A stretch of DNA of 64,000 nucleotides. It comes from a virus. A program made the position numbers and the translations under genes. The notes under the pieces were generated by a model. That model did not search any database. It was not told the DNA's origin and saw nothing but the letters and a program-made list of their open reading frames with translations. Below are positions 1 through 61,505 of the stretch, one piece after another (within the stretch, counting starts at the first letter, position 1; every line of letters starts with the position of its first letter). The stretch lies in IMG/VR virus record IMGVR_UViG_3300045988_184134. One strand, given 5' to 3'.

Positions 1-313
1 TGTCATCACATCAGAATCCCGCTGGCAGGTATAATTCGGGTCTACCTGTTTGATGACGCTATAAATCGTCGCGCGGTTCATGTTGTATTCTTTCGCCAGC
101 TCAACGGCCGTCACACCCTTGCTGTACTTGCGAGCAATTTCTTTGTCTCGTTGTTTCTTCCATTTATGGAAGTCCATAGAATGTTCTTTACGACTTGCTT
201 CACGAGATACCCTGTAGCAGATGTGGTTTGATACATGATGCTTTGCGGCAGCGTCTTTGATAGACATACCACTCTTCAAGTCCTCGACAATGAGCCGATT
301 CCTTTCTAACATT
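1..313 (-). CDS. HTH DNA-binding protein (tandem helix-turn-helix repeats), 5'-part only; ORF runs off window start
   Basis: Minus-strand ORF with ATG at 313, absent from the ORF track because it is truncated by the window edge. Translation MLERNRLIVEDLKSGMSIKDAAAKHHV...IARKYSKGVTAVELAKEYNMNRATIYSV shows two Y..G.S...IA.KY.V-type HTH units like those in 8883..9683. Confidence 0.45.
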
Positions 314-423
314 GCCTCTCTATCAATCAATGTTCTGTCCTCCTTGCATATAAAAAAGCAGGCTCGTAAAAGAACCTGCTTTAGTGGTCGTTAATGCACT
401 TTTTGGTTTACAATACCCAGTTT

Positions 424-450
424 ACTCAATTCGCACAAACGTGCAAGAAG
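424..450 (-). promoter_or_regulatory. promoter-like element TTGCAC-GTTTGTGCGAATTG for the HTH gene ending at 313
   Basis: -35 and spacer motif are clear; -10 is weak (TAAACT). Confidence 0.35.
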
Positions 451-963: not shown

Positions 964-1027
964 CTTTATTGTATTCAATTCGCAATGAAAAGCAAAAAGA
1001 GGGGCCGCCTGACGGCAGTCCCTCTTA
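964..1027 (-). promoter_or_regulatory. terminator of 1038..1547 followed by a promoter (TTGCTT-N16-TACAAT, spacer TTGCGAATTG) for 467..943
   Basis: Hairpin AAGAGGGACTGCCGTCAGGCGGCCCCTCTT plus U-run, then the promoter. Confidence 0.45.
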
Positions 1028-1571: not shown

Positions 1572-3005
1572 TTACATCGTCGGACTTTGCGGCAGCCACT
1601 GCTGCGGATAAGAACGAAGCAGATTCTTCGGCACACAATCATTCAGTGCAGAGTTCTCAGCAAGTGCCATGTCGATGATGTAGTAATCATCACCGTTGCG
1701 CATCACATCAACACTCCACTGCCCTGTCAGCTCTACGTGCGGGATAACCTTCTTCAGCTCATCCAGAACAATCTGGACACTCTCCTTGTAGCGCTTTTCC
1801 AGCACATCCTCGTGCATCTGGTAGATAACGTAGTCGTGCCGTTCCTGCGGACTGCTCACTTCCTGGAATTTGCCCTTCATCACATCGCTGCGCCAGTAAG
1901 GACTCACTCCGAGAATTGTCTTGGCATCGAAGTCCACAAACACGCGGTATTCAGTGTGCAGCGGCAGACCGTTATAGATAGTCGGGTTTCCTTCCTTGTC
2001 TTTGATATACTCTCTGACAACCCATTCATTGGTCGTATTTGCCCCATAGAAGCAATGTCCATTGGTGGGCGCTGCCATAGAACAGGTCAGGTGGTTCAGA
2101 AACAAGAAATACTCGCCTATCTCACGGACCTCTTGCGGTTCCTGGACATGAGCATTGCGAAACTCGTACTTGGAAGAGTAGGTGCCGGTTTTGATAAAGT
2201 AGTCGCCGTCATCGTTCAGATGGAAGATTCTCTTGCAGTAACGGTTCACAATCGCCTTCGTCACGGGATTCAGCGTCTCAAAGCCGAGTCTCGTGAGTTG
2301 GAGCATCGTGATGGGCACATGTAGGAGTTTCGTCTCCGGCACCTTGAAGAACTTATTACCGTCTAAGCCTTTAACCAACGGCGGCAGCCAGTAGCTCATG
2401 GTGTTCGGATTCATTTCGAGCATCTGATATGTGATGTCATCGAGGTCCAGAATATCGAGGCCCTGGCGGAACATGTGATACTGCATCGCCTTGTTTCGGT
2501 CATTTCTCGCATCGAGATACGCCTTGTAGTGGCTGAGCAGCACCTTGTAAGATGGCTCAGAAATGTCAATCTTCATCAGATTGCCGGTCAGCTGCGGCCG
2601 AAGTTCTTCCGGGAACTTCTTGAGGTCCTCATTCGTAACCGGCGGAAGGATATGCTGGTTTGCGGAATATCGAACGTAGTAACCACCGCGTTTCGGCTCA
2701 TAGATGTACAGTCTGGTGTCATCCATCAGCTCGGCAACGATTTGGTCAATGAGATTGTCCAGCTCTTTCGTAAAAGGCACGCTCTTATCGAGCATTGCCT
2801 TTACGGTTGCGGTATCCCACTGGAGAAGATTGTCAGACAGTGTCCCACTTTCCAGCACTTGGGTTTTGTAGACATCCTCAAAGGTTTTAAGAGCATCAGG
2901 GCTTGTTTTCAGCATCGATGCAAGCTCTTCATAGGAAAACAGCTTATTTTCTTTCTTAGATAGCATTGCACCGATTTGAGCAAGCATGTCATTGAACTGA
3001 GCCAT
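1572..3005 (-). CDS. ATP-grasp-like domain protein (477 aa)
   Basis: C-terminal half has an ATP-grasp-like pattern (…TGTYSSKYEF…VREIGEYFLFLNH…WSVDVMRNGDDYYIIDMALAENS). Start overlaps the stop of 3005..3337 (ATGA). Confidence 0.45.
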   Translation of the reverse strand: MAQFNDMLAQIGAMLSKKENKLFSYEELASMLKTSPDALKTFEDVYKTQVLESGTLSDNLLQWDTATVKAMLDKSVPFTKELDNLIDQIVAELMDDTRLYIYEPKRGGYYVRYSANQHILPPVTNEDLKKFPEELRPQLTGNLMKIDISEPSYKVLLSHYKAYLDARNDRNKAMQYHMFRQGLDILDLDDITYQMLEMNPNTMSYWLPPLVKGLDGNKFFKVPETKLLHVPITMLQLTRLGFETLNPVTKAIVNRYCKRIFHLNDDGDYFIKTGTYSSKYEFRNAHVQEPQEVREIGEYFLFLNHLTCSMAAPTNGHCFYGANTTNEWVVREYIKDKEGNPTIYNGLPLHTEYRVFVDFDAKTILGVSPYWRSDVMKGKFQEVSSPQERHDYVIYQMHEDVLEKRYKESVQIVLDELKKVIPHVELTGQWSVDVMRNGDDYYIIDMALAENSALNDCVPKNLLRSYPQQWLPQSPTM

Positions 3006-3364: not shown

Positions 3365-3494
3365 AAAAAGAGCGGGCCTCCCGCGTGGGAAGTCCGCTCT
3401 TCAAGCGAAATTGTGAATACGAAGGGCAAGTCGCCTTTTCGATTATGTTATCTATCGTACACTTTTATCTTACGCAATTCGCATATTTTGACAA
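3365..3494 (-). promoter_or_regulatory. module copy 1 (TTGTCA-N16-TAAGAT promoter, leader, terminator) upstream of 3005..3337
   Basis: Same P1, P2 and conserved CGTATTCACAATTTCGCTT box as copy 4; terminator AGAGCGGAC…GCCCGCTCT plus U5 at 3365..3400. Confidence 0.55.
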
Positions 3495-4844: not shown

Positions 4845-4983
4845 TAAAAAAGAGCGGGCCTACCCCGGAATGGGATAAGTCCGCTCTTAAAACAGATTGT
4901 GAACGATAGAAAATCGTAACATCTTTATGTGTTTGGTATCTATCGCACAATCAATATTGTAGTCAATTCGAAAGGAATGGCAA
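4845..4983 (-). promoter_or_regulatory. module copy 2 (TTGCCA-N16-TACAAT promoter, leader, terminator) upstream of 3667..4824
   Basis: Divergent leader that keeps P1 (GCGATAGA…TCTATCG) and CGTTCACAATCT; terminator AGAGCGGAC…GCCCGCTCT plus U6. Confidence 0.5.
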
Positions 4984-8698: not shown

Positions 8699-8899
8699 CT
8701 ACTCAACCTGAAGCACTGCCTGCATTGAGGTGTGCTGTTTCCGCTTTGCACGTGAAACGGCATGCTGCCTGACCGCCTGGCGGATGGCTGCGTTTGTGTG
8801 TTGGATGCTGGCGGTTTCCTCACGCGAAAAGTTTTTGTCCGTATTTCCTTGAAGATTAGACTCAGTTACAGCCTTTGCAAACTTAATAGATGTCGTCAT
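8699..8899 (-). CDS. small basic protein (66 aa)
   Basis: Internal ATG at 8899 preceded by GGAGG-CAGCT; trimmed from ORF-track 8699..8935. Confidence 0.3.
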   Translation of the reverse strand: MTTSIKFAKAVTESNLQGNTDKNFSREETASIQHTNAAIRQAVRQHAVSRAKRKQHTSMQAVLQVE

Positions 8900-9683
8900 A
8901 GCTGCCTCCGATTCCGGCCCAAAGAGCTTCATCACTCAAGTCGTTGCGAGGGCACTTGATAATGCCCGCTTCTCTTAAAATTTGTCTTGCTTCCTTTGGC
9001 GTTAAGCCGTATTGCTTGGCGAGATTCGATAGAGACTGATTTGGGATAGCTCTGGCTTGTGTAATCAATCGCCTTTTCTTTTCTGTCCAATCGATTGCTA
9101 AGCTCTTGTTTTTTGGAGCTGAGAGAGCGGTTCTTTCAAGGTCTTTTTCGAGGTCTTTTTGGTATTTTTTTGCGGCCGCCTGAATGCCGCTGACCGTCAT
9201 TCCCCATTTATCAGCAATCTTTTTATAAGACATGCCACTGATGTAGTCTTCATATATTTGTTTGTTTCTGGCGTGCTTTTCCTGAACATCTTTCTGGCGA
9301 TAGAGGCGCGTCTTCGCCAAACCTTCACGCTCTTTTTGATACTTTTTCACGATTGACCGAACGCAGCTACTGGTAACGCCCCATTTCTCCGCTATTTTGA
9401 TGCAAGACGCACCACTTATAAACTCTTCATAAATTTGCTTGTTTCTGGTATGTTTTGCCTGTGCATTTTTCTGCCAGTCAAGGCGTGTCTTCGTTAAACC
9501 ATATTTGGGGTCAGAACGTAGAATTTCGACAATTCTATAGCAAGAAAGGCTATATTTGTCCGCCAACTCCAAGACACATACACCATCCATATAATCTCTG
9601 TAAATGGCGTCATTGCGTTCTTTCAAAGATTCATAGACGCCGTTATTCTTTGCCTTCATCATAGTATCGCTGCTTCTCATCAC
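8883..9683 (-). CDS. transcription regulator with four tandem HTH repeats (sigma-70 region-4 / HTH_23-like)
   Basis: Repeated units YRDYMDGVCVLELADKYSLS / YEEFISGASCIKIAEKWGVTSS / YEDYISGMSYKKIADKWGMTVS / SLSNLAKQYGLTPKEARQIL. Confidence 0.55.
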   Translation of the reverse strand: MMRSSDTMMKAKNNGVYESLKERNDAIYRDYMDGVCVLELADKYSLSCYRIVEILRSDPKYGLTKTRLDWQKNAQAKHTRNKQIYEEFISGASCIKIAEKWGVTSSCVRSIVKKYQKEREGLAKTRLYRQKDVQEKHARNKQIYEDYISGMSYKKIADKWGMTVSGIQAAAKKYQKDLEKDLERTALSAPKNKSLAIDWTEKKRRLITQARAIPNQSLSNLAKQYGLTPKEARQILREAGIIKCPRNDLSDEALWAGIGGSYDDIY

Positions 9684-12508
9684 AGACCTCCAAACGAAAG
9701 TTGCTCGCCCGTTGTCTGAGGCTTTGCTTCACTCTTTTCTTTCTTCTTGGAACCAAAGCTGCCACCATTACGCCGCTTGTAGCCGTACCCCTTATGCGCA
9801 GCCTGGACGGATTTGTACCCATACCCGTTTGCATCATCCAGCACAGTGTTGGAATCCTCTTCCATGATGACATAGCGTACATCACCGGGTTTAGATAGCT
9901 TGGAGGAGCGAATAACTCGATATTCGGCCGGAAACGCTTCTTTTTCTTTCTTATACTGCTCTTCTCCGTCCTTCCACCAGCCGACAGGTTCAGAGTCATA
10001 CGTCTGACGCTCCGGCGGCAGACGCTTGTACTGGGAGAAGTCATAGGGTTCGGTTGCGGTTTCTTCTGCAACTTTGACATCCACACCCATGCTCTGCAAG
10101 CTGTTCAGCATTTGCTCGAAACTATCAGCCGGATTCAAAACCACCTGTTTCGAGGCTTGAGCCGGGCTGTACTGGGTAACAGGCTTTGGACGCTTCTTCT
10201 CGCGGACTTTCCAGACCTTGAGAAGCTGACGCTCATTGAAGTCGATGACCAAGCCGCAGTCTTTAAGCATCTTGCGAACCACATAAGTAGAGAAGTTCGA
10301 ATAACCCGAATAGGGGCCGACATGGTTCTCAATATCGACTGCCACGCAAGACATCTGATGTTCGAACTCTGCATGGTCATCAAGCCACTGTTCAATGACA
10401 TGGAGAAGTTCTTTCTTATTGACCGATTCTTCCGTAGCTTTCTTATTCTGTTTCACGTATGCTTCGCAGGCGGCCAGAATTGTGTCATAGCCGTTTACTG
10501 CCGTACCGCCCACGATAGAGCGAGTTCCCGCATCCAGGATGACATACTGCTCACCCTGCTTGATAATAGCAACACCTTCGTCCTGCGGCTTTTCCTCAAC
10601 AATGTTGCCGCCGGTATCAAATTCAGGCAGCGAAGTGTCGGACATAACACGGTCGAGAATCGTGTCAAGGCTCTGGGAGTAGTCTTTCTCCAGATTGTAG
10701 GCGAGAGCTTCCGTATAGACGCCCTTGGTGATGCACTTCACTACCGCATTCAGAAAAGCCGTGCGGTCCGGAATTTCGACTTCATACATCGTGTTATCCC
10801 GGATGTTCCAAAGAACGCCGGTAGGAAGGCCTGTGGCGAGCATATAGCAGGCGCACTGGATGAAGTGCTTGTGTGCGAGGTTTGATACGAACTTCAGATA
10901 ATAGACCTTGTTGTCCTTGACTACATCGGCCATACCGCTAACGATAAGCGATGTGACAGGCTGCTTCAGTTCATCCTGTTCTACCACAATGTTTAGTTCT
11001 GCGCGTTCCTGAACCTCTTCATCATGGGTAAACATCGTAGAGAGGCGGTCAGTCAGCGCTTTTGCCTGTTCCGGCGTGATGAAAGGCAGTTCAACCTGCT
11101 TGATGTAACGGTCCTGACTCGTCATCAGCATCGTCAGGAACAGGACTTTTTGCTCCACTGATTTCCAAGAGGTCGGGACCTTCGCCATCTTGTCCTTGTG
11201 TAGGTACATGAAGAAGGCGATGGCGCTGTCGATGTCGTAAAAATCGAAGAAGTTTGCCTGCTGGTAGATACCGATGCAGGGAGACAGGTCAATCATCGCA
11301 TCGGAGTGCTTGATTTCGATTTCCGTCTGGTCTTTCTGGAATACCTGCTTGGTTGTGATAAGGTTGTAGCACGCATCCACATCCTCATCAAACTTGAAAT
11401 CGAACATTTCACTGATGTCGAATTTGTCCTTAAAGGTGGTGCGAGTCTTGACAGGGGTCATCAGTGTCTTGTCACTCACGAGGCTACGCTTATCAGGCTT
11501 AACGAAGATGACTTCTTGCTTGCCACGGCTCGCAGCTACGCAAAAGAGGTTGCGCATGATTTCGTAGCGAGTCAGAGGCTGGCGCATACGGGTCGCCCAG
11601 TAATCCTCGGTAAAATCGAAGACCACGCAGATAGGACGTTCCATGCCCTTGCTGCCGTCGAATGTCGTGAAGATGCCCACATTGCTGTTCGGAGCTACGC
11701 TTTTTTCGCCGTCGTTGTCCTTGATGCTGGCATAAACATGTTTTTTGTCGTAAAGGTTATCGGGGCGCTCTTCCAAGGCATTCAAAACTGCGGCCATCTG
11801 GCCGGTACGAGCGCCAAGGCATAGGACGTTCTTCGGGTCCAAATCGTTGAGGTACTCGATGACCTCATCCTTCGTCATGGACTTGACTTTGCAGTTCTCG
11901 TTGACTCCGTTGATTTCCTTATTCCAGATAGTGCCAAGGCGCTCGGCCAAGTCGTGGGACAAGCGGAAGCATTGGGTAAAGTTGACCTGCGTGTGTTTGC
12001 CGAGGAACTTGTTGATGAAGTTCCAGATGTCCAAGGATGTGGTGTCGTAGATTTTCTGCGCCATATCCCCCACCGCAATAATTTGCATGGTGGGGTTTTC
12101 TTCCTTGATATATTCAAGCATTCGAGAGATTTCTTCGTTAATATCTTGGTACTCATCGATGATGAGCACGTCATAGCGACCGACCGGAACATGCAAATCG
12201 AGCGCCTTCTTAATTTGCTCGCCCTGTCCAATATTACGAACTCCGTGCCGATAGAGGAGTTTTGAAGCAAAGCCGTGGTAGTTCTGGACGACAACATTGT
12301 CGTTTAGGATTTTTTCTTGCGCGTCGAGTTTTAGCAGACGGTTATAGGTCAGGTACAGAATCTGTTTGGAGGCGTCAAACTCGTTACACAACACGTTGAT
12401 GGTCGATGTTTTACCGCTGCCGATGCAAGCGTCACAGAGTATATTTCTGCCTGCGAGAGCCAGGCGTACAAGGTCCTGTTGCTCAGTAGACAGGTTAGCG
12501 AGAGTCAT
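9680..12508 (-). CDS. UvrD/PcrA-like superfamily-1 DNA helicase (942 aa) with long C-terminal extension
   Basis: Motif I GSGKTS, motif II IIDEYQD, FTTFDGSKGME, motif VI VAASRGKQEV; preceded by leader/terminator module copy 6. Confidence 0.8.
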   Translation of the reverse strand: MTLANLSTEQQDLVRLALAGRNILCDACIGSGKTSTINVLCNEFDASKQILYLTYNRLLKLDAQEKILNDNVVVQNYHGFASKLLYRHGVRNIGQGEQIKKALDLHVPVGRYDVLIIDEYQDINEEISRMLEYIKEENPTMQIIAVGDMAQKIYDTTSLDIWNFINKFLGKHTQVNFTQCFRLSHDLAERLGTIWNKEINGVNENCKVKSMTKDEVIEYLNDLDPKNVLCLGARTGQMAAVLNALEERPDNLYDKKHVYASIKDNDGEKSVAPNSNVGIFTTFDGSKGMERPICVVFDFTEDYWATRMRQPLTRYEIMRNLFCVAASRGKQEVIFVKPDKRSLVSDKTLMTPVKTRTTFKDKFDISEMFDFKFDEDVDACYNLITTKQVFQKDQTEIEIKHSDAMIDLSPCIGIYQQANFFDFYDIDSAIAFFMYLHKDKMAKVPTSWKSVEQKVLFLTMLMTSQDRYIKQVELPFITPEQAKALTDRLSTMFTHDEEVQERAELNIVVEQDELKQPVTSLIVSGMADVVKDNKVYYLKFVSNLAHKHFIQCACYMLATGLPTGVLWNIRDNTMYEVEIPDRTAFLNAVVKCITKGVYTEALAYNLEKDYSQSLDTILDRVMSDTSLPEFDTGGNIVEEKPQDEGVAIIKQGEQYVILDAGTRSIVGGTAVNGYDTILAACEAYVKQNKKATEESVNKKELLHVIEQWLDDHAEFEHQMSCVAVDIENHVGPYSGYSNFSTYVVRKMLKDCGLVIDFNERQLLKVWKVREKKRPKPVTQYSPAQASKQVVLNPADSFEQMLNSLQSMGVDVKVAEETATEPYDFSQYKRLPPERQTYDSEPVGWWKDGEEQYKKEKEAFPAEYRVIRSSKLSKPGDVRYVIMEEDSNTVLDDANGYGYKSVQAAHKGYGYKRRNGGSFGSKKKEKSEAKPQTTGEQLSFGGL

Positions 12509-12540: not shown

Positions 12541-12634
12541 AAAAGAATACCCCGGCAGGCACGCATGGTGTTCCGCCGGGGTACAATTATTTATCTTACA
12601 ATATCAATTGTAGGCAATTCGCACAGATGGTCAA
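12541..12634 (-). promoter_or_regulatory. module copy 6, short form (TTGACC-N16-TACAAT promoter, then terminator, then RBS of the helicase)
   Basis: TGTGCGAATTG spacer motif; hairpin TACCCCGGCGG…CCGCCGGGGTA plus UUCUUUUU. Confidence 0.5.
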
Positions 12635-12914
12635 GCGCTTTTTATCGTATTTTGTTTTGAGTTTTGCGAGCACAAAAACAACGTCCACCCGTGATTTACG
12701 GATGGACGTTCAATCTTACGCAGCTACATGTGCTGCTACGATGCTTTCGGACGACATGTAGTCGATACCGTCCTCGTTTCAATCTTACGCAGTCACACGG
12801 GCTGCTACGGCAAAATTACATAACAAAGAATTTTGCATATATTCAGCATTGTATATTCTGCCACTATTGGTTCTACGTTATTTTTGTTTGCTATCACCGC
12901 ATCTCTTTGCGGTT

Positions 12915-17173: not shown

Positions 17174-17499
17174 AATCTGTTTCAAGTGAATCACCACCAT
17201 TTTTGTGGATGCAATGTGCTTTTTTCCTTCTTTATTTATAATTTTACCTGTAAAAACAGAAAAACACAACGATAGTAGCTTGTTTTTAATTTTCTGTACA
17301 CATTTTGAAAGAAAGTCTTTGCCATCGAATAGAAAAGAAAAGACCCGCCTGTTAGCAGCAGGCAGGCCGTTCTCGCAGTGAGCGTTTTAGGTCCGCTCAA
17401 GACCCTATTCGTCTCTACCGAAGCAACACTATCAGCGCCGTTCAGTATCTATTAGTATACGGTGGTCGCATATCGTGTCAACTGGATATCGCGGCAATG

Positions 17500-17919: not shown

Positions 17920-17955
17920 TTTATTGTATTCAGTTCGCATATTGCGTCAACTATC
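17920..17955 (-). promoter_or_regulatory. promoter TTGACG-N16-TACAAT (spacer ATGCGAACTG) for 17556..17876
   Basis: Sequence match. Confidence 0.5.
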
Positions 17956-18385: not shown

Positions 18386-18435
18386 TTTTGATGTTCTCCT
18401 TTGTATGTTATTTGGTTTTCCTTGCACTTTAAATT

Positions 18436-18470
18436 GTACGCAGTTCGCAAGGGTAGTCAATCGGTCCAAT
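18436..18470 (-). promoter_or_regulatory. promoter TTGACT-N16-TACAAT (spacer TTGCGAACTG) for 18065..18385
   Basis: Sequence match. Confidence 0.5.
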
Positions 18471-19521: not shown

Positions 19522-20967
19522 TCAACCGCCAACCAAAAAGGCGCTGTCCAGCCTGGCAATGCTCTCCATCTCTTCTCGCAACTCCCTGTTTGCCTCCGCA
19601 TCCCCTACCATATCTCTCAGCACCACAAACAAAGCTCTCACCACAATGCAAGAGCCATGATAACGCCCAACGCGCTGGTGCTTTTCAGAGTCGCAACTGT
19701 CATGCAGTATCGGTGCTTGCCTAAATGCAATAGCTGCGTTAAGCGCCATTGCAATGGGCGCTCCGATGGTAAACTCGCCATCTGAGACCAATGCAAGCTT
19801 TGCAAGCCAGATATAGGAGCGGAAAATAAAGAGTATCTCCTCAAGGGATAGAAGGCTCCAGTCGGGGATGGAGTCGTTTCCTTGGATGGCGACAATGGCT
19901 TTCTTGAAGCCATCCTTCGCCTGCTGATACTTCCTTTCGACCGCATCCAGCCATGCAATTTGAAACATAGCCTTGTAGTAGGTACTATCCAGATGTAGAG
20001 CTTTCTGGAAGCATTGCAAGGCCCTCTCGCTATCCGCGTACATCTGCTTTTCAGACAGGCCGTATTTCAGGAATATCTCAGCTGTAAAAGGCATCGTCTC
20101 TTTGGAGGCATGCTCTATAGCATCACGCAGGTACGGTCGCGCATCAAGAGCGAACTGTGGTTGCCCTTCGCACAGTGCGGCGGCCAGGTGGTACATGGAT
20201 ATGAAGTCTGGCTCGACGCGGTGGATTTTGTTCAGTTCCGAAAGTAGTTTCTCTACCGGCTCAAGGACCGAGAGTAGTCTTATCCTCAACGGAGAGTAAG
20301 TCTCCAACGCGGCCGTAAGCTCTCTTAGATGTCTCTGCGCGTTCACATAAGCGTACACGGAATAGACGCTCTGAGGCCCTATTCGGCATTGCTTTTCCAG
20401 CTCAATGAAAGAATCTGCCATCTCGTTGAGGTAGCCGTCATCTGGCAACTTGTAATCACTTCTTGGGTTAAGAGCTTTTAGTTCGCTCATTTTCAGAGCC
20501 TGAAACGTACTCTTGATTTGCAAGTGCGCGAACATGTCAAACCGCCAGAAGGTCTCATTGATGTGCTGGAGACTCGCTACTGCCATCGCATCTTCTCGCC
20601 AAACGTGACGAATGATGTCATTAAGCGCTTCCTTCTCAAACCGCATCACAGAGGAACGGCCTTGTATAGCATCAGCACCATTGATAATCAGTTTCTGTTC
20701 CTTGATGCTGAAAACGCACCACAATTCATTCTCAGCCGGTTCTGAATCACCGGGATAGCAGTCAGTGAGAAACAGATACGCTGTCTGTTTATTCTCAGGA
20801 TGCGCCAATATCTTATGTTGCTTTGACATGTCTTCGGCCGACATCCTGGTTGTTCTGACCAGGCAGCCAACGAAGGTAAAGAATGTTCTCAAGACTTCTT
20901 TTTCTGCTCCGGCTTGCGGTTCGTAGCAAATCTTGATAGCCATAATTGGCTTGATTGCATTGCTCAT
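19522..20967 (-). CDS. TPR-like repeat protein (481 aa)
   Basis: Helical repeat segments such as YYKAMFQIAWLDAVERKYQQAKDGFKKAI. Confidence 0.5.
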   Translation of the reverse strand: MSNAIKPIMAIKICYEPQAGAEKEVLRTFFTFVGCLVRTTRMSAEDMSKQHKILAHPENKQTAYLFLTDCYPGDSEPAENELWCVFSIKEQKLIINGADAIQGRSSVMRFEKEALNDIIRHVWREDAMAVASLQHINETFWRFDMFAHLQIKSTFQALKMSELKALNPRSDYKLPDDGYLNEMADSFIELEKQCRIGPQSVYSVYAYVNAQRHLRELTAALETYSPLRIRLLSVLEPVEKLLSELNKIHRVEPDFISMYHLAAALCEGQPQFALDARPYLRDAIEHASKETMPFTAEIFLKYGLSEKQMYADSERALQCFQKALHLDSTYYKAMFQIAWLDAVERKYQQAKDGFKKAIVAIQGNDSIPDWSLLSLEEILFIFRSYIWLAKLALVSDGEFTIGAPIAMALNAAIAFRQAPILHDSCDSEKHQRVGRYHGSCIVVRALFVVLRDMVGDAEANRELREEMESIARLDSAFLVGG

Positions 20968-23403: not shown

Positions 23404-23490
23404 GAGCGGTCGAGCCGCTCTCCTCAAAACACTTATTTAGCTTACAATTTTCATTCTATGCAATTCGCACAGACACGCAAGGCAAAATGG
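23404..23490 (-). promoter_or_regulatory. module copy 7, short form (TTGCGT-N16-TAGAAT promoter, then terminator, then RBS of 22709..23371)
   Basis: TGTGCGAATTG spacer motif; hairpin GAGAGCGGCTCGACCGCTCTTTC plus U5. Confidence 0.5.
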
Positions 23491-24132: not shown

Positions 24133-24165
24133 CTACCTACAATGATACTCAATTCGAACGGATGA
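24133..24165 (-). promoter_or_regulatory. promoter TTGTTC-N17-TATCAT (spacer CGTTCGAATTG) for 23498..24109
   Basis: Sequence match. Confidence 0.4.
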
Positions 24166-24299
24166 ACAAGGAACCTTACGACATGTACATGGTTTCTTTA
24201 GAAATTGTTATCACGCTTTTAATAAACAGCGTCAAATCTCGCATTTTTGTATTCCATGTGTTATAAATGCAAGTAGAAAAGAAGGATGAGGCGTTTTTT

Positions 24300-28056: not shown

Positions 28057-28094
28057 GTTCTTTTCCCTCCCAATGTGTATCGCTTTCTATTATC

Positions 28095-28130
28095 TGCAAT
28101 TCGCACAATTCATCAAATTTTCGCAGATAC
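28095..28130 (-). promoter_or_regulatory. promoter TTGATG-N17-ATAATA (spacer TGTGCGAATTG) for 26782..28056
   Basis: Sequence match; conventional terminator, then promoter order here. Confidence 0.45.
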
Positions 28131-35220: not shown

Positions 35221-35260
35221 AATTCTACGCAATTCGCACAAATGCACAAGACATTATTTC
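35221..35260 (-). promoter_or_regulatory. promoter TTGTGC-N16-TAGAAT with TGTGCGAATTG spacer motif; heads the about 230-nt leader of the flotillin gene
   Basis: Sequence match; an upstream intrinsic terminator at 35271..35310 insulates it. Confidence 0.5.
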
Positions 35261-36153: not shown

Positions 36154-36380
36154 TGTATCACACCTTTGCTGATATTTTGCGAAAAAGTTATAATGTGACA
36201 ACCATTGCAATGGATATTGTTGCCAATTCGCACGTTTTGGCAACAAAAAGGCCCGACCGCTTTGGGTCGAGCTTAATGCTTCTTATTATATGTTGCTGGT
36301 TTTGCGTTTTCTTTTGGGACAGTGAAGTGTTTGCAAACAATTCATCACACACTGTCGAGATTTATTATGATATGGTATAA

Positions 36381-36389
36381 TGGGTATAG
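36381..36389 (+). promoter_or_regulatory. extended -10 (TGgTATAAT) for the GNAT-like gene
   Basis: Sequence match 23 nt upstream of the RBS. Confidence 0.35.
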
Positions 36390-37975: not shown

Positions 37976-38003
37976 ATTGACGAATTAGCGCAATTCCGTA
38001 TAA
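37976..38003 (+). promoter_or_regulatory. plus-strand promoter TTGACG-N16-TATAAT for the BlaI-like / XRE regulator pair
   Basis: Near-consensus hexamers; spacer contains CGAATTAGCGCAATTCCG. Confidence 0.5.
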
Positions 38004-38035
38004 TTGAAATCAGCATTACAGAATAACAATGAAAG

Positions 38036-38431
38036 TTGGTGTTTTCTATGGCAGCTTCCAGCCATGCGCCCCGTCCGTATCATCTGACTCCCGCAGAGGA
38101 AACCGTTATGAAAGCTTTCTGGAACAGCAAAAAGCCGCTGTGCCAGCAGGATATCCTTGACCATGTGAAAGAGAATGGTGACCTGTTCTGGAAAGAGCGT
38201 TCCATCTTCGCCATCATCAATTCTCTGATGAAGAAAGGCTGTATCAAGGAGGATGGGATGGTTCGCGCCGGTAAAACCTATGCCAGAACTTTTGCTCCCG
38301 CAATGAGCCGTGCAGAGTTCTATGCGGGCATGGTGACGAACGCGCTGACGAAGAAAGAGCTGGTCGAGTTCCGTCGCGCTATGCGTCAGTTAGCGAACGA
38401 AGATTCTGAATCTTCCGATGAGGAGGCTTGA
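38036..38431 (+). CDS. BlaI/MecI/CopY-family winged-helix transcriptional repressor
   Basis: LTPAEETVMKAFW…QQDILDHV…ERSIFAIINSLMKKGCIKEDGMVRAGKTYARTFAP matches the penicillinase-repressor family. Confidence 0.6.
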   Translation: MVFSMAASSHAPRPYHLTPAEETVMKAFWNSKKPLCQQDILDHVKENGDLFWKERSIFAIINSLMKKGCIKEDGMVRAGKTYARTFAPAMSRAEFYAGMVTNALTKKELVEFRRAMRQLANEDSESSDEEA

Positions 38432-39044: not shown

Positions 39045-40313
39045 TTATATGCTCCCTTGTAAGTATCCGTGTGGGTGAATCGTATGGTCTGCCCTCGCGT
39101 CGCAATGCGAGAGGAGTCGGTCCTTATACATCACAGCTCGCTGTACAGAATAGTATCCAAATCGGTTTCTGACCCCATCAATGGCAGATTCTAAGCGTTC
39201 CATCTCTTCTTGCTTTTCGGCACTGAAGTCGAACGAGATTTGGCAAGGCTCCGTATCCGGCTGTAGGTCTATGGCCCGCACGCCAATGGAACGAAGATGC
39301 TCGCTCCAATGATAGTGCTTTTTATATAACGTGAACGCGGCGGTCGCTATCTCTTGCTCTTGCATTGTCGGCAGGGACAGTTTCATCTGGCGCTCGAAGC
39401 TGAATAGGTTGGAGTCCCTCAAACTCACCTCCACGCCTCGGCATCGGAAATGGTTCTCTCGGAGGCGTGCCGCGACACTCTCTGCGAGTAGGTAAAGCAC
39501 TATCCAAACATCCTGGTCGGTCTTTAAGTCCCGTGGTGTCGTCCAGCTATTTCCGATGCTCTTGATGGGAGCAAGCACCTCCCGCTGCTCGTACTTCGCC
39601 ACCGGGTCAGAGTCCAGGCCGTTGGCAAACCTCCAGAGCAAGAGTCCTACCTTGCCGAGCTTCTCCTGCAAGAACTGAGGTCTGGTCTTTGCCAAGTCTC
39701 CAATGGTATGTATAGCATAGCTATCTAACTTAGCAGCCGTTTTCTTTCCTACATATAGCAAATCCGAAGCAGGCAGCGGAAAGACTATCTTCTCGAAATT
39801 CTGTCTATTGATGACCGTAATGGCATCTGGCTTTTTGTAGTCCGAGCCGAGCTTTGCCATCGTTTTATTCCAACTGACTCCGACCGAGCAGGTAATGCCG
39901 AGTTCGTCCTTGACGGTGTCGGAGATTTTCTTTGCTATCTCCTCCCCTGTCCCAAAGAGAGACTGACTCGCGGTACAATCGAGCCAGGCTTCGTCCAAGC
40001 CAAACGGTTCGACCTGGTCGGTATAGCGCAGGAAGATTTCTCTGGTATAGCCGCTGAATCGGGTGTATAGGTCATAGTGAGCCGGAACAAAGGTGATGTC
40101 TCTGCAATGTTGCTGTGCCTCCCAAAGCGGCATACCAGTTTTCACGCCCATCCGCTTGGCCGGATACGAAGCTGTCAATACGATGCCGCTCCGCCGTTCT
40201 GGGTCACCGCATACTGCAATCGGCTTGTCCCGTAATTCAGGATGGTAGGCCATCTCACAGCTGGCATAGAAGCAGTTCATATCGCAATGAAGGACGGCTC
40301 GTTCTTTTGCCAT
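39045..40313 (-). CDS. Y-family DNA polymerase (DinB/UmuC/UvrX-like)
   Basis: MAKERAVLHCDMNCFYASCEMAYHPELRDKPIAVCGD… N-terminal signature. Start trimmed to MAK because the TGYGCGAATTG promoter motifs at 40326..40365 lie inside the longer ORF-track version. Confidence 0.85.
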   Translation of the reverse strand: MAKERAVLHCDMNCFYASCEMAYHPELRDKPIAVCGDPERRSGIVLTASYPAKRMGVKTGMPLWEAQQHCRDITFVPAHYDLYTRFSGYTREIFLRYTDQVEPFGLDEAWLDCTASQSLFGTGEEIAKKISDTVKDELGITCSVGVSWNKTMAKLGSDYKKPDAITVINRQNFEKIVFPLPASDLLYVGKKTAAKLDSYAIHTIGDLAKTRPQFLQEKLGKVGLLLWRFANGLDSDPVAKYEQREVLAPIKSIGNSWTTPRDLKTDQDVWIVLYLLAESVAARLRENHFRCRGVEVSLRDSNLFSFERQMKLSLPTMQEQEIATAAFTLYKKHYHWSEHLRSIGVRAIDLQPDTEPCQISFDFSAEKQEEMERLESAIDGVRNRFGYYSVQRAVMYKDRLLSHCDARADHTIHPHGYLQGSI

Positions 40314-40325
40314 AATATACAACCT

Positions 40326-40365
40326 CAATTCGTACAGATGGTTCCTAATTCGCATATAACAACCG
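40326..40365 (-). promoter_or_regulatory. two tandem TGYRCGAATTR motifs immediately upstream of the Y-family polymerase start
   Basis: TATGCGAATTAG and TGTACGAATTGAGG on the minus strand; -10 TATATT abuts the ATG. Confidence 0.35.
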
Positions 40366-40508
40366 ACTGTTGTTATTATAGCCTATCAAGTGGTGGGATG
40401 CAAGGGGTATGGAAGAATTTGCCGTTTGCAATCCCATTAGTTACTCTACAACTGTGGAAGACCTTGACAAAAGAAAGAGAGGAGCTTGTTTAGCTCCCCT
40501 CTTTTACT

Positions 40509-49243: not shown

Positions 49244-49416
49244 GCTACGCCTCCTAAAAAGAAAAAGAACGACGGCTACGCAACCAGCGACCAGTTTCAT
49301 GGTGGCAGCTACGCTTCCGTCGTTCATAAGCTCCTTTGCTATTGGCAGCGATGCTTTCATCCTCTGCCTACGGTTCGTTCCACGCGCACCTACGGTTTCA
49401 CCCGCCGGGCTACGCT
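49244..49416 (+). repeat. 9-mer repeat cluster A: six copies of RGCTACGSY in 173 nt
   Basis: Copies start at 49244, 49274, 49308, 49366, 49388 and 49408, all in the same orientation; the first three are spaced about 30 to 34 nt apart. Confidence 0.6.
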
Positions 49417-49605
49417 TTAATCATCGTCGTCTTTGAGTGCGTTATAGGCAAAGAACCCATAAAGGCCAAAGAAGTACAGCGTAATAACCCAAGTGGGAAG
49501 GTATTCAGTCACGCCGGTCAGCGTGAAGACAACAGCCATAATACAAGCCGTTACCAGGAACTGCGAATCGACGTACAGCACCAATCCGATGTTAAAGCCT
49601 TTCAT
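49417..49605 (-). CDS. small two-TM membrane protein (62 aa)
   Basis: Two hydrophobic helices; acidic DDDD C-terminus. Confidence 0.4.
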   Translation of the reverse strand: MKGFNIGLVLYVDSQFLVTACIMAVVFTLTGVTEYLPTWVITLYFFGLYGFFAYNALKDDDD

Positions 49606-49607
49606 CT

Positions 49608-50273
49608 TTATGCCTCCTCAAAGTAGTCTCTCAGCGAGTCAGAGACTTTAACTCGTACAGTGTCATCCCACGAGTCGTATTTGTTCTCCGGGTACGAAAC
49701 ATCTTCGACAGAACTCAGCTTCCAGGTAGAAACAGGCTCACCGTCTTCGATGCGAACAATGGTAGGAGCGCCGATACGCTTCTCTCCAATCTCGTACTTG
49801 TTCTTGTCCTTATCACTTACCGTGTAATCTGCCAGGTAGTCTTGCAGCCAATTGAGAAGTTCATCATACCCTTCCCCTGCTGCTTTTGTCATCACAGGAG
49901 CACCAGCATTCTCGTCGTATGCGTAGATGTCGCGGTACTCATCGATTTGGCAGTAGTAAACGGTCTGGTTCTTTTCTTTGGCAATACCGGTAAGTTCAGG
50001 AATCAGGTTGCGGCAGTAAGGGCAGCGAGGATACGCAAAGATAACGATGCCATCTTTGATTTCTCTCGCCTGTGTCGCAGTCACTTCAACATAAGTGTTA
50101 TTCCAGGGAATGCCTACGGTTTGATAGGTATAGTCAGCAGCTACGCTCGGCTTCTGGTTGTTGTATCCAGAGTAGCTTCTTGCAACTACGGCTCCATCAC
50201 TACTGGCTACGCTAATTGCAGCAGCCATTGCCAGCGATGCAACTACGTAAGGAACAATGAATTTCTTAGTCAT
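49608..50273 (-). CDS. secreted thioredoxin/glutaredoxin-fold protein (CPYC active site)
   Basis: Signal peptide MTKKFIVPYVVASLAMAAAISVASS; IVIFAYPRCPYCRNLIPEL CxxC motif. Its first 55 codons carry five copies of the RGCTACGSY 9-mer. Confidence 0.6.
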   Translation of the reverse strand: MTKKFIVPYVVASLAMAAAISVASSDGAVVARSYSGYNNQKPSVAADYTYQTVGIPWNNTYVEVTATQAREIKDGIVIFAYPRCPYCRNLIPELTGIAKEKNQTVYYCQIDEYRDIYAYDENAGAPVMTKAAGEGYDELLNWLQDYLADYTVSDKDKNKYEIGEKRIGAPTIVRIEDGEPVSTWKLSSVEDVSYPENKYDSWDDTVRVKVSDSLRDYFEEA

Positions 50274-50490
50274 TTCTCAAAACCTCAAGTGCCTACGGTC
50301 AGGAGCTACGCTTTGAGGTTTGTAGTTCTTCGGCTACGCTTCGGCAGCTACGCTCCTTCCGTGTTTCGTCTTCTTTATTTTCATCGCCATTATACCACGA
50401 ATTCGTAATTGTCTCAATTGTGGTCCTTCGATGTTCATAAAATAGTAATATTTGCTTTTGAGGTTTTTGACGTGCGCTATCAGCTACGCT
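50112..50490 (+). repeat. 9-mer repeat cluster B: ten copies of RGCTACGSY spanning the 5' end of the thioredoxin-like gene and its upstream region
   Basis: Copies at 50112, 50138, 50183, 50205, 50240, 50291, 50304, 50332, 50346 and 50482. Two of them sit in the loop of the inverted repeat AAACCTCAA…TTGAGGTTT (50281..50322). Confidence 0.6.
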
Positions 50491-51708: not shown

Positions 51709-51876
51709 AAAGAGTTTTCTCCTTTCAAAAGAAAAACCGCTCGGTGTAGCAACCGAACGGCAGGAATTGTGAATTATATAAAGGAATAGTATCTATGCTA
51801 CATTCATAATTGTACGCATATCGCACAGTCGTGCAATAGAAAAAGCCGCCCTCTTGAAAGAGGACGGCAGTTAATG

Positions 51877-52827: not shown

Positions 52828-52971
52828 TGGGTTTTGCCTCCTATATTATATCACGTGACGCATACGCCTGCAACTGTTCACTGGTATCCACCTCCTTTAA
52901 CGTGAACATTGCGATAAATAAAAAATGGCCCACCCGAAGGGGTGAGCCATCCGCCAAAGGAGAATAAGCTG

Positions 52972-53930: not shown

Positions 53931-54112
53931 AAAAAGAGCGGGCCTCCTGACGAATCAGGAAGTCCGCTCTTGGCAGTTTGTTAAGGGTCAAAGCTCAAGC
54001 AGCCGGATTGGTTCCGGTGGACAACTTACAACATAGTAAGTTTCCAAATTGCTTGCGATAAATGGTATCCATTAACTGCTTTTTATTATAGGCAGTTCGC
54101 AAGCAGCGTCAA
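53931..54112 (-). promoter_or_regulatory. module copy 3 (TTGACG-N16-TATAAT promoter, different leader, same terminator hairpin) upstream of 53472..53795
   Basis: Terminator AGAGCGGACTTCC…GGAGGCCCGCTCT plus U6 at 53931..53970; about 130 nt more of leader before the RBS. Confidence 0.45.
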
Positions 54113-56584: not shown

Positions 56585-56719
56585 AAAAAGGCGGACCCCC
56601 GAAAATTTCGGAAGGTCCGCCTAAAAGCGAAATTGTGAATACGAAGGGCGCTTTGCCTTTTCGATAACTGTTATCTATCGTACAACTACCATTGTATTCA
56701 CTTCGCACAGCTGTGCAAG
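56585..56719 (-). promoter_or_regulatory. module copy 4: promoter (TTGCAC-N17-TACAAT), conserved structured leader, intrinsic terminator, then RBS of 55415..56560
   Basis: On the minus strand: TTGCACAGCTGTGCGAAGTGAATACAAT; P1 CGATAGATAAC…ATCG; P2 AAGGC-AAAGC-GCCCTT; box CGTATTCACAATTTCGCTT; hairpin GGCGGACC…GGTCCGCC plus U5; AAAAAGGAGAA; ATG. Confidence 0.55.
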
Positions 56720-57758: not shown

Positions 57759-58133
57759 TCACCTCGGTAAATTAGAATTCACAAAAGCTATAAGCTGCTG
57801 TAGGTAATAGGAAACCTGGGTCAGGATTGCTTGATAGTCAACCTCGATGCCAAGATACTGCATAAGATGATACACCGCATATAGCGTGATGCCACCCAGT
57901 ACGATTGTCTCAAACACTCGACTGACACCGCGAGCAACAAACCAAACCACCATAACAATCAAAGCAATATCGACTACAACTCGAATATCACCAGACTGCA
58001 CAAGAGAATTGATGCTGTTCGCCACATCGTTCATGGCAGACATAAAAATCGCCTCCTTTGCGTTGATGCTACCATTTTTTATCCTACGCCGTTCGCACAT
58101 TTCCGCAATGAAACGGCATAACTCGTAAAACAT
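57759..58133 (-). CDS. membrane protein (124 aa)
   Basis: Central hydrophobic helices IVMVVWFVARGV… and GGITLYAVYHL. Confidence 0.4.
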   Translation of the reverse strand: MFYELCRFIAEMCERRRIKNGSINAKEAIFMSAMNDVANSINSLVQSGDIRVVVDIALIVMVVWFVARGVSRVFETIVLGGITLYAVYHLMQYLGIEVDYQAILTQVSYYLQQLIAFVNSNLPR

Positions 58134-61370: not shown

Positions 61371-61505
61371 CAAAAAGAGCGAACCTCCCATAATAGGAAG
61401 TCTGCTCTTTAAGCGAAATTGTGAATACGCAGGGCTTTCGCCTTTTCGATTGTTATGGTATCTATCGTACAACTATCATTGTATCCACTTCGCACAAATG
61501 TGCAA
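61371..61505 (-). promoter_or_regulatory. module copy 5 (TTGCAC-N16-TACAAT promoter, leader, terminator) upstream of 60429..61331
   Basis: P1; P2 with a GAAA loop (AAGGC-GAAA-GCCCTG); conserved box; terminator AGAGCAGAC…GTTCGCTCT plus U5. Confidence 0.55.

Follow-up and report, generated by a model that had tools for sequence, protein, structure and literature searches.

Genes of the 64,000-nucleotide stretch of DNA analyzed here (IMG/VR virus record IMGVR_UViG_3300045988_184134, hereafter the window) are almost all carried by the minus strand, and most of the promoters recognized in front of them share a short sequence embedded between the -35 and -10 hexamers, as in the promoter located at 35222-35249. 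What this sequence is for, and which protein reads it, is the question raised by this locus. A first-pass annotation of the window had proposed that it is the binding site of a regulator encoded by the element itself. We consider it the predicted operator of a plasmid-encoded global repressor, a reading to which we give a probability of about 0.4, and weigh this reading below against alternative ones.

The location of the motif between the -35 and -10 hexamers, as initially described, is real. Using a 28-nt matrix composed of the -35 hexamer, N3, the 11-mer, N2 and the -10 hexamer, 17 sites scoring at least 25 bits were found on the minus strand of the window, for zero sites of at least 10 bits on its plus strand and zero sites of at least 18 bits in shuffled sequences. 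These 17 promoters, referred to as class I, are all on the minus strand and follow one fixed layout, TTGc / five variable bases / yGTGCGAAyTG / two variable bases / TAcAAT, with a spacer of 16 bp (Table 1). The exact 11-mer TGTGCGAAYTG is present in five copies in the window, all on the minus strand, for 0.12 expected; with two mismatches allowed, the bare 11-mer gives 43 matches versus 39 expected and is thus not enriched, meaning that the signal consists of the motif together with its promoter context. Fifteen of the 16 sites initially listed are canonical, the one at 40326-40365 being located outside any spacer, and two canonical promoters (58108-58081 and 51836-51809) had been overlooked. 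The statement that nearly every minus-strand promoter carries the motif proved roughly true, with 17 motif-bearing promoters versus five others on this strand (three motif-less and two with a decayed motif); two motif-less promoters were also found on the plus strand, so that about three quarters of the promoters of the window have this 13-base sequence embedded in their spacer. The inverted repeat formed with the -35 region was correctly reported for four promoters, which have TTGCAC as -35 hexamer (61505, 56718, 51836 and 446), GCACA-NN-TGTGC being perfect at the first two and imperfect at the others. The class I promoters lack the over-long spacer of 19-20 bp and the dyad operator of MerR-type promoters, their spacer being of 16 bp in every case and their site asymmetric, and they have no TGn extended -10, since their TG is located two bases upstream of the -10 hexamer (positions -16/-15).

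The same layout is conserved among related contigs. Scanning IMG/VR for the exact pattern formed by the motif and the -10 hexamer returned more than 120 stretches, with TTG at the -35 position in about 100 of 122 matches; these matches come down to about eleven distinct promoter sequences, and the contigs bearing them range from 27 to 247 kb. Eighty IMG/VR loci display about 67-95% nucleotide identity to parts of the window, where alignable, and the scan of about 1.1 Mb of loci of this family provided 84 non-redundant promoters, three matches from unrelated contigs being excluded. In this set T-23, G-22, C-21, G-20 and A-19 are kept in 81 to 84 of the 84 promoters and are as invariant as A-11 and T-7 of the -10 hexamer, with A-18, y-17, T-16, G-15, C-14 and r-13 likewise constrained. 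The -35 hexamer is reduced to TTG, its fourth position preferring C (C-31, 54/84), and A-28 is enriched (56/84). Upstream of -42 and downstream of +20 the information content falls to about 0 bits, which argues that the 84 promoters are not a pile of recent copies. Positions -34 to -27 (TTGC..AT) and -24 to -17 form a direct repeat nTGCnnAT with a 10-bp spacing, and the dyad GCACA-NN-TGTGC occurs in a subset of 15 promoters having TTGCAC; neither of these two readings of the site is decisive.

The position of the motif relative to the hexamers is as constant as its sequence. An unbiased search for the core [TC][GT]TGCGAA[TC][TCG]G gave 43 non-redundant matches in the canonical frame, plus a few more with a degenerate -35, for only 12 matches elsewhere compared with about 12.6 expected (a hand-computed expectation); the motif is therefore found detached from its exact promoter position only at chance frequency. 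The relatives recovered for comparing the orthologues of class I and class II promoters (the latter described below) are all very close to the window. An orthologue of the promoter at 17950-17923 (locus L257, 3844-3871) has lost the TTG of its -35 (GGGCTC); its motif (TATGCGAACCG) and its -10 hexamer (TACAAT) are retained. This isolated example hints that these two together may form the more essential part.

A second class of promoters (class II, Table 1), motif-less or with a decayed motif, has a 17-bp spacer, together with TGnTATAAT in 4 of 6 cases, and resembles ordinary sigma-A promoters of Firmicutes. Class II drives the BlaI-like/Xre gene pair, the Y-family polymerase gene and a few unknown genes. 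One of them, at 52873, resembles a class I promoter with a decayed motif that has since gained a TGn and a 17-bp spacer. The presence of motif-less promoters on the same element indicates that the host polymerase can do without the motif, which is, as far as can be judged from sequence, an add-on and not a requirement of the host.

The motif also appears to be specific to this family. With the 28-nt matrix, no class I promoter was found in 41 kb of the Bifidobacterium plasmid pMP7017 or in 100 kb of SPbeta. A scan of one genome per species for the motif plus -10 (16 specified bases), for which about 280 chance matches were expected, gave among the 118 matches listed a single family member and six cases with TTG in place, and the non-family matches, among those listed, look chance-like. 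We thus regard the motif as a promoter-embedded element probably specific to this plasmid family. A full class I layout, TTGAGT tta TGTGCGAATTG ag TATAAT, was observed on a scaffold of Faecalitalea cylindroides ATCC 27803 (locus L153, 5254-5281), upstream of an open reading frame (ORF) beginning like a response regulator; this chromosomal site may be due to chance or be a hint at the host range or at a host factor. The motif string was retrieved from the literature in unrelated primers only. Compared by eye, the consensuses of sigma-54, sigma-H, sporulation sigma factors, extracytoplasmic function (ECF) sigma factors, CRP/FNR, LexA and DnaA do not fit in sequence and spacing, and a distant half-site likeness to Spo0A and Rex sites fails on alignment, with a misfit in both sequence and spacing.

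The element carrying these promoters looks like a conjugative megaplasmid and not a phage. Its products in the window include a UvrD/RecD-type helicase, a DUF3854 primase-like protein, a YqaJ exonuclease, a Y-family polymerase, a metallo-beta-lactamase-fold protein, an RlaP nucleotidyltransferase, a flotillin, a sortase, a signal peptidase, a NADAR protein, a YpsA-like protein and two proteins made of tandem helix-turn-helix (HTH) modules. No phage structural gene was seen among the window products, no tRNA is present in the window, and megablast of window segments against phage and plasmid collections gave no match. A 477-residue protein (1572-3005) has full-length relatives on Bifidobacterium megaplasmids only and partial relatives on Lactococcus megaplasmids and SPbeta-like phages. 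The Hodor elements are conjugative megaplasmids of the human gut, of 211-389 kb, with a G + C content of 47.1% for their group G1, found in thousands of gut metagenomes (PMC12934698), and characterized by a size above 200 kb, sortases, about 45-47% G + C and a Rep_3/ParAB/type IV secretion system core (PMC12934698). A relative of the Y-polymerase gene is located on a 389-kb contig, at the upper end of this range; the G + C content of the window (48% vs 47.1%), its sortase and signal peptidase, the occurrence of its relatives in viral databases and its distant relationship to Bifidobacterium megaplasmids fit these elements as well, suggesting that the element of the window likely belongs to the Hodor megaplasmids. 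The regulatory layer described here differs in being absent from their description, a bioRxiv preprint of 2026 (PMC12934698), the main text of which uses none of the words promoter, terminator and sigma (PMC12934698).

We favour the reading of the block as an operator because the hexamers look competent for sigma-A, because its location in the spacer suits occlusion of the promoter and because the closest documented systems are repressors. The 13-bp block (y)GTGCGAAyTG(cr), from -25 to -13, would be the operator of the megaplasmid's own regulator and would define a plasmid-wide regulon, the 17 promoters of the 64 kb extrapolating to several dozen on about 350 kb if their density holds. With their TTG at -35, their near-consensus TAcAAT at -10 and their A-rich discriminator, these promoters would be intrinsically competent for the primary sigma factor of the host. 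A protein bound to the spacer would exclude RNA polymerase, and in an established host most operons of the plasmid would thereby remain quiet; the absence or inactivation of this repressor, as might be the case shortly after entry by conjugation, would release them jointly. The same short site overlapping the core promoter at many promoters (17 in the window, 84 in the family) is what could be expected of such a repressor regulon. Binding by a protein, the identity of this protein and repression as its effect are what we infer here from the sequences. A dedicated regulator encoded by the element, as proposed in the first-pass annotation, thus stands as the most economical reading of a motif that is promoter-embedded and family-specific, its binder and its effect being predictions.

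The leading candidates for this regulator are the tandem-HTH proteins, which would autoregulate through the best-consensus sites. The first of them (266 residues), encoded by the second gene of the operon driven by the promoter at 12634, has four tandem HTH modules with matches to the Pfam Mor-type HTH, HTH_23 and HTH_28 families; the second is a paralog encoded by the first gene after the promoter at 446, of which the N-terminal 110 codons are in the window. Both operons are under exact-consensus promoters. Tandem-HTH paralogs are frequent in the family (106 tblastn matches in 61 loci with the N-terminal fragment as query), and the exact consensus is found at all five promoter entries (four distinct) directly driving a tandem-HTH gene versus 17 of the 79 others (hand-calculated p about 1e-3; Mann-Whitney test on motif scores, p = 0.0016). 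It is this perfect consensus at all direct drivers that designates them; the pattern is as expected of an autoregulated regulator, which it suggests and does not prove. Moreover, the asymmetric, direct-repeat-like site found in one orientation would suit a monomer with several HTH modules. Compared with 206-residue homologs (P0002-P0009), the protein at 8883-9683 comprises one additional HTH module, of 60 residues and nearly identical, which is a recent internal duplication, the number of modules varying in the family. An exact-protein look-up of this protein returned no record, and its AlphaFold model (mean predicted local distance difference test score, pLDDT, 71; predicted template modelling score, pTM, 0.31) gave in Foldseek a mix of weak matches to sigma factors and bipartite transposase HTH domains. 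Their designation as candidates in the first-pass annotation hence gains from the promoter entries, and they stay predicted binders devoid of significant structural neighbour.

Several points weigh against a repressor, or against this candidate. A fixed geometry with detached copies at chance frequency only is more typical of factors acting as partners of the polymerase, and the sub-optimal class I core (16-bp spacer, no TGn, only TTG at -35) hints at a positive role, as does, for a positive contribution of the motif, the orthologue that has lost its -35 and kept the motif. No homolog of MrpR, the master repressor of SPbeta, was found in the sampled DNA of the family, with partial coverage of the plasmids, and the Foldseek search of the tandem-HTH model against the PDB gave no match below E = 0.02. 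Located behind a helicase gene, the tandem-HTH protein at 8883-9683 could alternatively be an accessory protein of DNA transfer. The fixed geometry and the sub-optimal core keep alive the readings in which the block acts positively and is coupled to the polymerase.

The structure of the transcription units bears on these readings. The promoter-proximal terminators stated in the first-pass annotation were confirmed at 10 of the 17 motif promoters, where a leader of 80-160 nt ends in a strong intrinsic terminator that immediately precedes the ribosome-binding site; these terminators are 60-150 nt downstream of the promoters. At about as many promoters (about ten) the terminator of the preceding unit abuts the -35, and the co-oriented units have each their own promoter, with strong terminators on both sides. 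Strong leader terminators are lacking at the remaining seven motif promoters, six of which are clearly short-leadered, and leader terminators are also found behind the motif-less promoter at 19525 and the decayed-motif promoter at 17481. These exceptions on both sides, together with the terminator-bracketed units, indicate that the leader module is separable from the motif. The leaders start with a 5' box (T)TGTAcGATAGATAaCA, which mostly pairs with a CGTACAA further on and encloses a variable hairpin with compensatory changes (e.g. GGCGC/GCGCU vs GGCAC/GUGCU), followed by a box ATTCACAAT and then by the terminator. A -10-like hexamer at +1/+3, starting 12 or 14 bp downstream of the genuine -10, was found in 48 of the 84 promoters versus 3-5 per background position; it coincides with the conserved leader box that also pairs in the RNA, and is weak or absent at several short-leader promoters. 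The folds show no obvious alternative antiterminator structure; they are single-sequence folds, as RNAalifold gave the terminator helix only and MAFFT misaligned the variable inner hairpin. No Rfam match was obtained for the window at gathering thresholds, nor for one leader at E up to 1, and the leader family is possibly a new cis-regulatory RNA or attenuator.

In another reading, the block would serve for docking: a plasmid factor associated with the polymerase, such as a Q-like loader or a MotA-like appropriator of tandem-HTH type, would recognize it jointly with hexamers of the sigma-A type. This reading appears to us somewhat unlikely. In lambda, the Q-binding element (QBE) is located between -35 and -10, with a -10-like pause sequence and a terminator shortly downstream, and a comparable protein could here bind the spacer, board a polymerase halted just downstream by a sigma-dependent pause and let it read through the leader terminator. 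The motif is at the same place (-25 to -13), with an invariant geometry, a -10-like sequence in the initially transcribed region and a nearby terminator, as in lambda; this likeness, which was drawn in the first-pass annotation, is nevertheless topological only. Lambdoid phages have one such promoter each, compared with dozens here, the leader module also occurs where the motif is missing, some motif promoters lack a strong leader terminator, and most of the -10-like signal is due to the box forming the RNA helix. None of the 83 window ORFs scanned against Pfam matches a Q-family protein, the best hit to Phage_antitermQ being below threshold (17.1 bits for a cut-off of 26) and inside an HTH. 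As judged indirectly from the sequence, terminator-bracketed, co-oriented units with their own promoters would be pointless under processive antitermination; such insulation weakens the analogy, and we consider Q-like loading quite unlikely. An activator bound at -25 to -13, perhaps also at the TTGC at -34, and contacting the polymerase as a requirement for initiation would define a plasmid-specific transcription programme, as MotA boxes do for the middle promoters of T4. This is unlikely too, even if it would account for the invariant spacing to both hexamers, the sub-optimal core, the orthologue deprived of -35 and the gain of a 17-bp spacer and TGnTATAAT at the decayed promoter at 52873. 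The near-consensus -10 would predict basal activity, the 16-bp spacer without dyad does not resemble MerR-type sites, and activators binding inside a 16-bp spacer are, to our knowledge, essentially without precedent. The MotA box of T4 is comparable in being short, asymmetric and located at a constant distance from a -10 of the sigma-70 type, and in marking a whole promoter class; it differs in replacing the -35, at about -30, the class I promoters having retained the TTG at -35, with a box centred at about -20.

The block might instead be read by the holoenzyme itself, through a plasmid-encoded factor of the sigma-70 family or a sigma variant of the host, classes I and II corresponding to two holoenzymes. 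The coherent differences between the classes in spacer length, third base of the -10 and extended -10 would agree with this, as would the 19 contiguous constrained bases, which recall a dedicated promoter. We know of no sigma domain reading -25 to -18, however, and the TTG at -35 and TAnAAT at -10 are those of the primary sigma factor instead of distinct hexamers; no SigA-like or YonO-like ORF was found among the family loci sampled (approximately 1.1 Mb, a partial coverage of the plasmids), and the Hodor preprint mentions no sigma factor (PMC12934698), making this explanation an improbable one. A chromosomal regulator of the Bacillota host, into which the plasmid would plug most of its promoters, could be suspected from the conservation of an unchanged motif between plasmid lineages with about 70% nucleotide identity. 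It is nevertheless very unlikely, considering that all in-family occurrences are on megaplasmids, that the matches in other species, among those listed, are chance-like, and that a conjugative plasmid presumed to be exchanged between Bacilli and Clostridia would hang on one host factor. Finally, the block could have no function of its own and be inherited from one ancestral promoter cassette copied around the plasmid, as promoter-plus-leader modules are visibly repeated (families D1-D4). Against this, N3, N2, positions 5-6 of the -35 and all flanks have been randomised, in contrast to the block, which does not vary among the 84 promoters of these diverged lineages; such an invariant block among randomised neighbours points to purifying selection and not to recent copying, leaving this last explanation barely credible.

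Comparison with known systems is in line with the repressor reading. In the Bacillus prophage SPbeta, the repeated element SPBRE is present at about ten promoters and is bound by MrpR, which the prophage encodes (PMC10516654). SPBRE is in the -35/-10 spacer at yonP and yorE (PMC10516654), and its position otherwise varies, some copies being upstream and others downstream, close to the ribosome-binding site (PMC10516654). Both cases thus present a short repeated element at many promoters of a large mobile element, in the spacer at yonP and yorE, and the window shares some SPbeta-type proteins. They differ in that SPBRE (AAATACAAAAAATATGTAT) is unrelated in sequence to the window motif, the position of which never varies, and in the lack of an MrpR homolog mentioned above. 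Many operator copies distributed over an element, silencing what would be costly to express, are also known for KorA/KorB of RK2, C1 of P1 and the stoperators of gp71 in mycobacteriophage L5; the sites of C1 and gp71 are asymmetric and orientation-dependent, and KorA operators always overlap the -10. These systems differ from the present one by their sequences and proteins and by operators that are not known to be strictly in the spacer of every target, the window having about 17 sites per 64 kb and a binder that is only a candidate. The promoter element is therefore new for these plasmids and belongs to a kind of system already known.

The Hodor megaplasmids, which have approximately 350 kb of genes to control, were recognised only recently. 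A single invariant 13-bp element in most of their promoters would provide a direct handle for finding a master regulator, a sequence tag for transcription units and a compact, portable regulatory part. Should it be a positive signal coupled to the polymerase, it would add a novel type of promoter element to those of Gram-positive bacteria. As a docking element it would be the megaplasmid's own promoter code imposed on the host polymerase at dozens of operons, and a Gram-positive, multi-operon counterpart of systems known to us only from the single promoters of lambdoid phages or from T4.

Table 1. Promoters, leaders and candidate regulator genes located in the window (class I sequences given as -35 hexamer, N3, motif, N2 and -10 hexamer; terminator positions approximate)
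Feature	Position	Strand	Sequence	Remarks
Class I promoter	35222..35249	-	TTGTGC att TGTGCGAATTG cg TAGAAT	Flagged site; exact consensus; motif 35240-35230; drives Band7/flotillin operon via structured leader
Class I promoter	61478..61505	-	TTGCAC att TGTGCGAAGTG ga TACAAT	Leader, then terminator ~61375
Class I promoter	58081..58108	-	TTGCGG aaa TGTGCGAACGG cg TAGGAT	Short leader; overlooked initially
Class I promoter	56691..56718	-	TTGCAC agc TGTGCGAAGTG aa TACAAT	Leader, then terminator ~56588
Class I promoter	54085..54112	-	TTGACG ctg CTTGCGAACTG cc TATAAT	Long leader, terminator ~53933
Class I promoter	51809..51836	-	TTGCAC gac TGTGCGATATG cg TACAAT	Leader, terminator ~51735; overlooked initially
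Class I promoter	36216..36243	-	TTGCCA aaa CGTGCGAATTG gc AACAAT	
Class I promoter	28089..28116	-	TTGATG aat TGTGCGAATTG ca GATAAT	Exact consensus; short leader
Class I promoter	24142..24169	-	TTGTTC atc CGTTCGAATTG ag TATCAT	Short leader
Class I promoter	23453..23480	-	TTGCGT gtc TGTGCGAATTG ca TAGAAT	Exact consensus; leader, terminator ~23397
Class I promoter	18433..18460	-	TTGACT acc CTTGCGAACTG cg TACAAT	Short leader
Class I promoter	17923..17950	-	TTGACG caa TATGCGAACTG aa TACAAT	Short leader
Class I promoter	12607..12634	-	TTGACC atc TGTGCGAATTG cc TACAAT	Exact consensus, best score; leader, terminator ~12546; drives 942-residue helicase and tandem-HTH gene 8883-9683
Class I promoter	4956..4983	-	TTGCCA ttc CTTTCGAATTG ac TACAAT	Leader, terminator ~4849
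Class I promoter	3467..3494	-	TTGTCA aaa TATGCGAATTG cg TAAGAT	Leader, terminator ~3368
Class I promoter	968..995	-	TTGCTT ttc ATTGCGAATTG aa TACAAT	Short leader
Class I promoter	419..446	-	TTGCAC gtt TGTGCGAATTG ag TAAACT	Exact consensus; leader, terminator ~354; drives tandem-HTH gene starting at 330
Decayed-motif promoter	17454..17481	-	TTGACA cga TATGCGACCAC cg TATACT	Own leader terminator ~17336
Class II promoter	19525-19497	-		Motif-less
Class II promoter	50417-50389	-		Motif-less
Class II promoter	52873-52845	-		Decayed motif
Class II promoter	about 40402-40374	-		Y-family polymerase promoter
Class II promoter	37977-38004	+		BlaI-like plus Xre genes
Class II promoter	about 36350-36385	+		
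Degenerate motif copies (two)	40326..40356	-	TATGCGAATTA, TGTACGAATTG	3' of motif-less Y-family polymerase promoter
Leaders, closest copies	3467-3337, 4956-4824, 56691-56560, 61478-61331	-		
Leaders, variants	51809-51708, 12607-12508, 23453-23371, 35222-35065, 419-331, 54085-53920	-		
Candidate binder gene	8883..9683	-		266 residues, four tandem HTH modules
Candidate binder gene	1..330	-		N-terminal 110 codons of second tandem-HTH paralog; gene leaves window

The surroundings of the Y-polymerase gene appear to be controlled separately. The two degenerate motif copies found there are outside any spacer, the second overlapping the ribosome-binding site. Relatives conserve them poorly and have other repeats (GGTTGT/ACAACC) instead; we therefore rejected the two copies as independent operators. 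The promoter region of this gene (40300-40410; loci L244-L256) has repeated GGTTGT(A)/(T)ACAACC dyads conserved in relatives, and the BlaI-like gene (38036-38431, plus strand) is conserved beside the Y-polymerase gene with 57-61% identity. The BlaI-like repressor was discarded as a binder of the spacer motif, as it neighbours a polymerase gene whose promoter has BlaI/CopY-type dyads (TGTA/TACA); protein and dyads look like a separate repressor-operator pair for an SOS-type polymerase.

Other repeats were observed in the window. The sequence AGCGTAGCY is present in 11 copies versus 0.73 expected; eight of them, all in one orientation (minus strand), are clustered within and around the non-coding stretches at 48.9-50.5 kb (49307-50490) and the others are at 11482, 11693 and 17974. 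These repeats are candidates for iterons or for a partition site. Two 32-nt direct repeats (12709-12740 and 12778-12809), 88% identical and 69 nt apart, are located in a 406-bp gap upstream of the promoter of the helicase operon. The Hodor plasmids are reported to have a separate helicase with a MOBH-like relaxase (PMC12934698), and given this report the 32-nt repeats could form a protein-binding region or a region related to the transfer origin.

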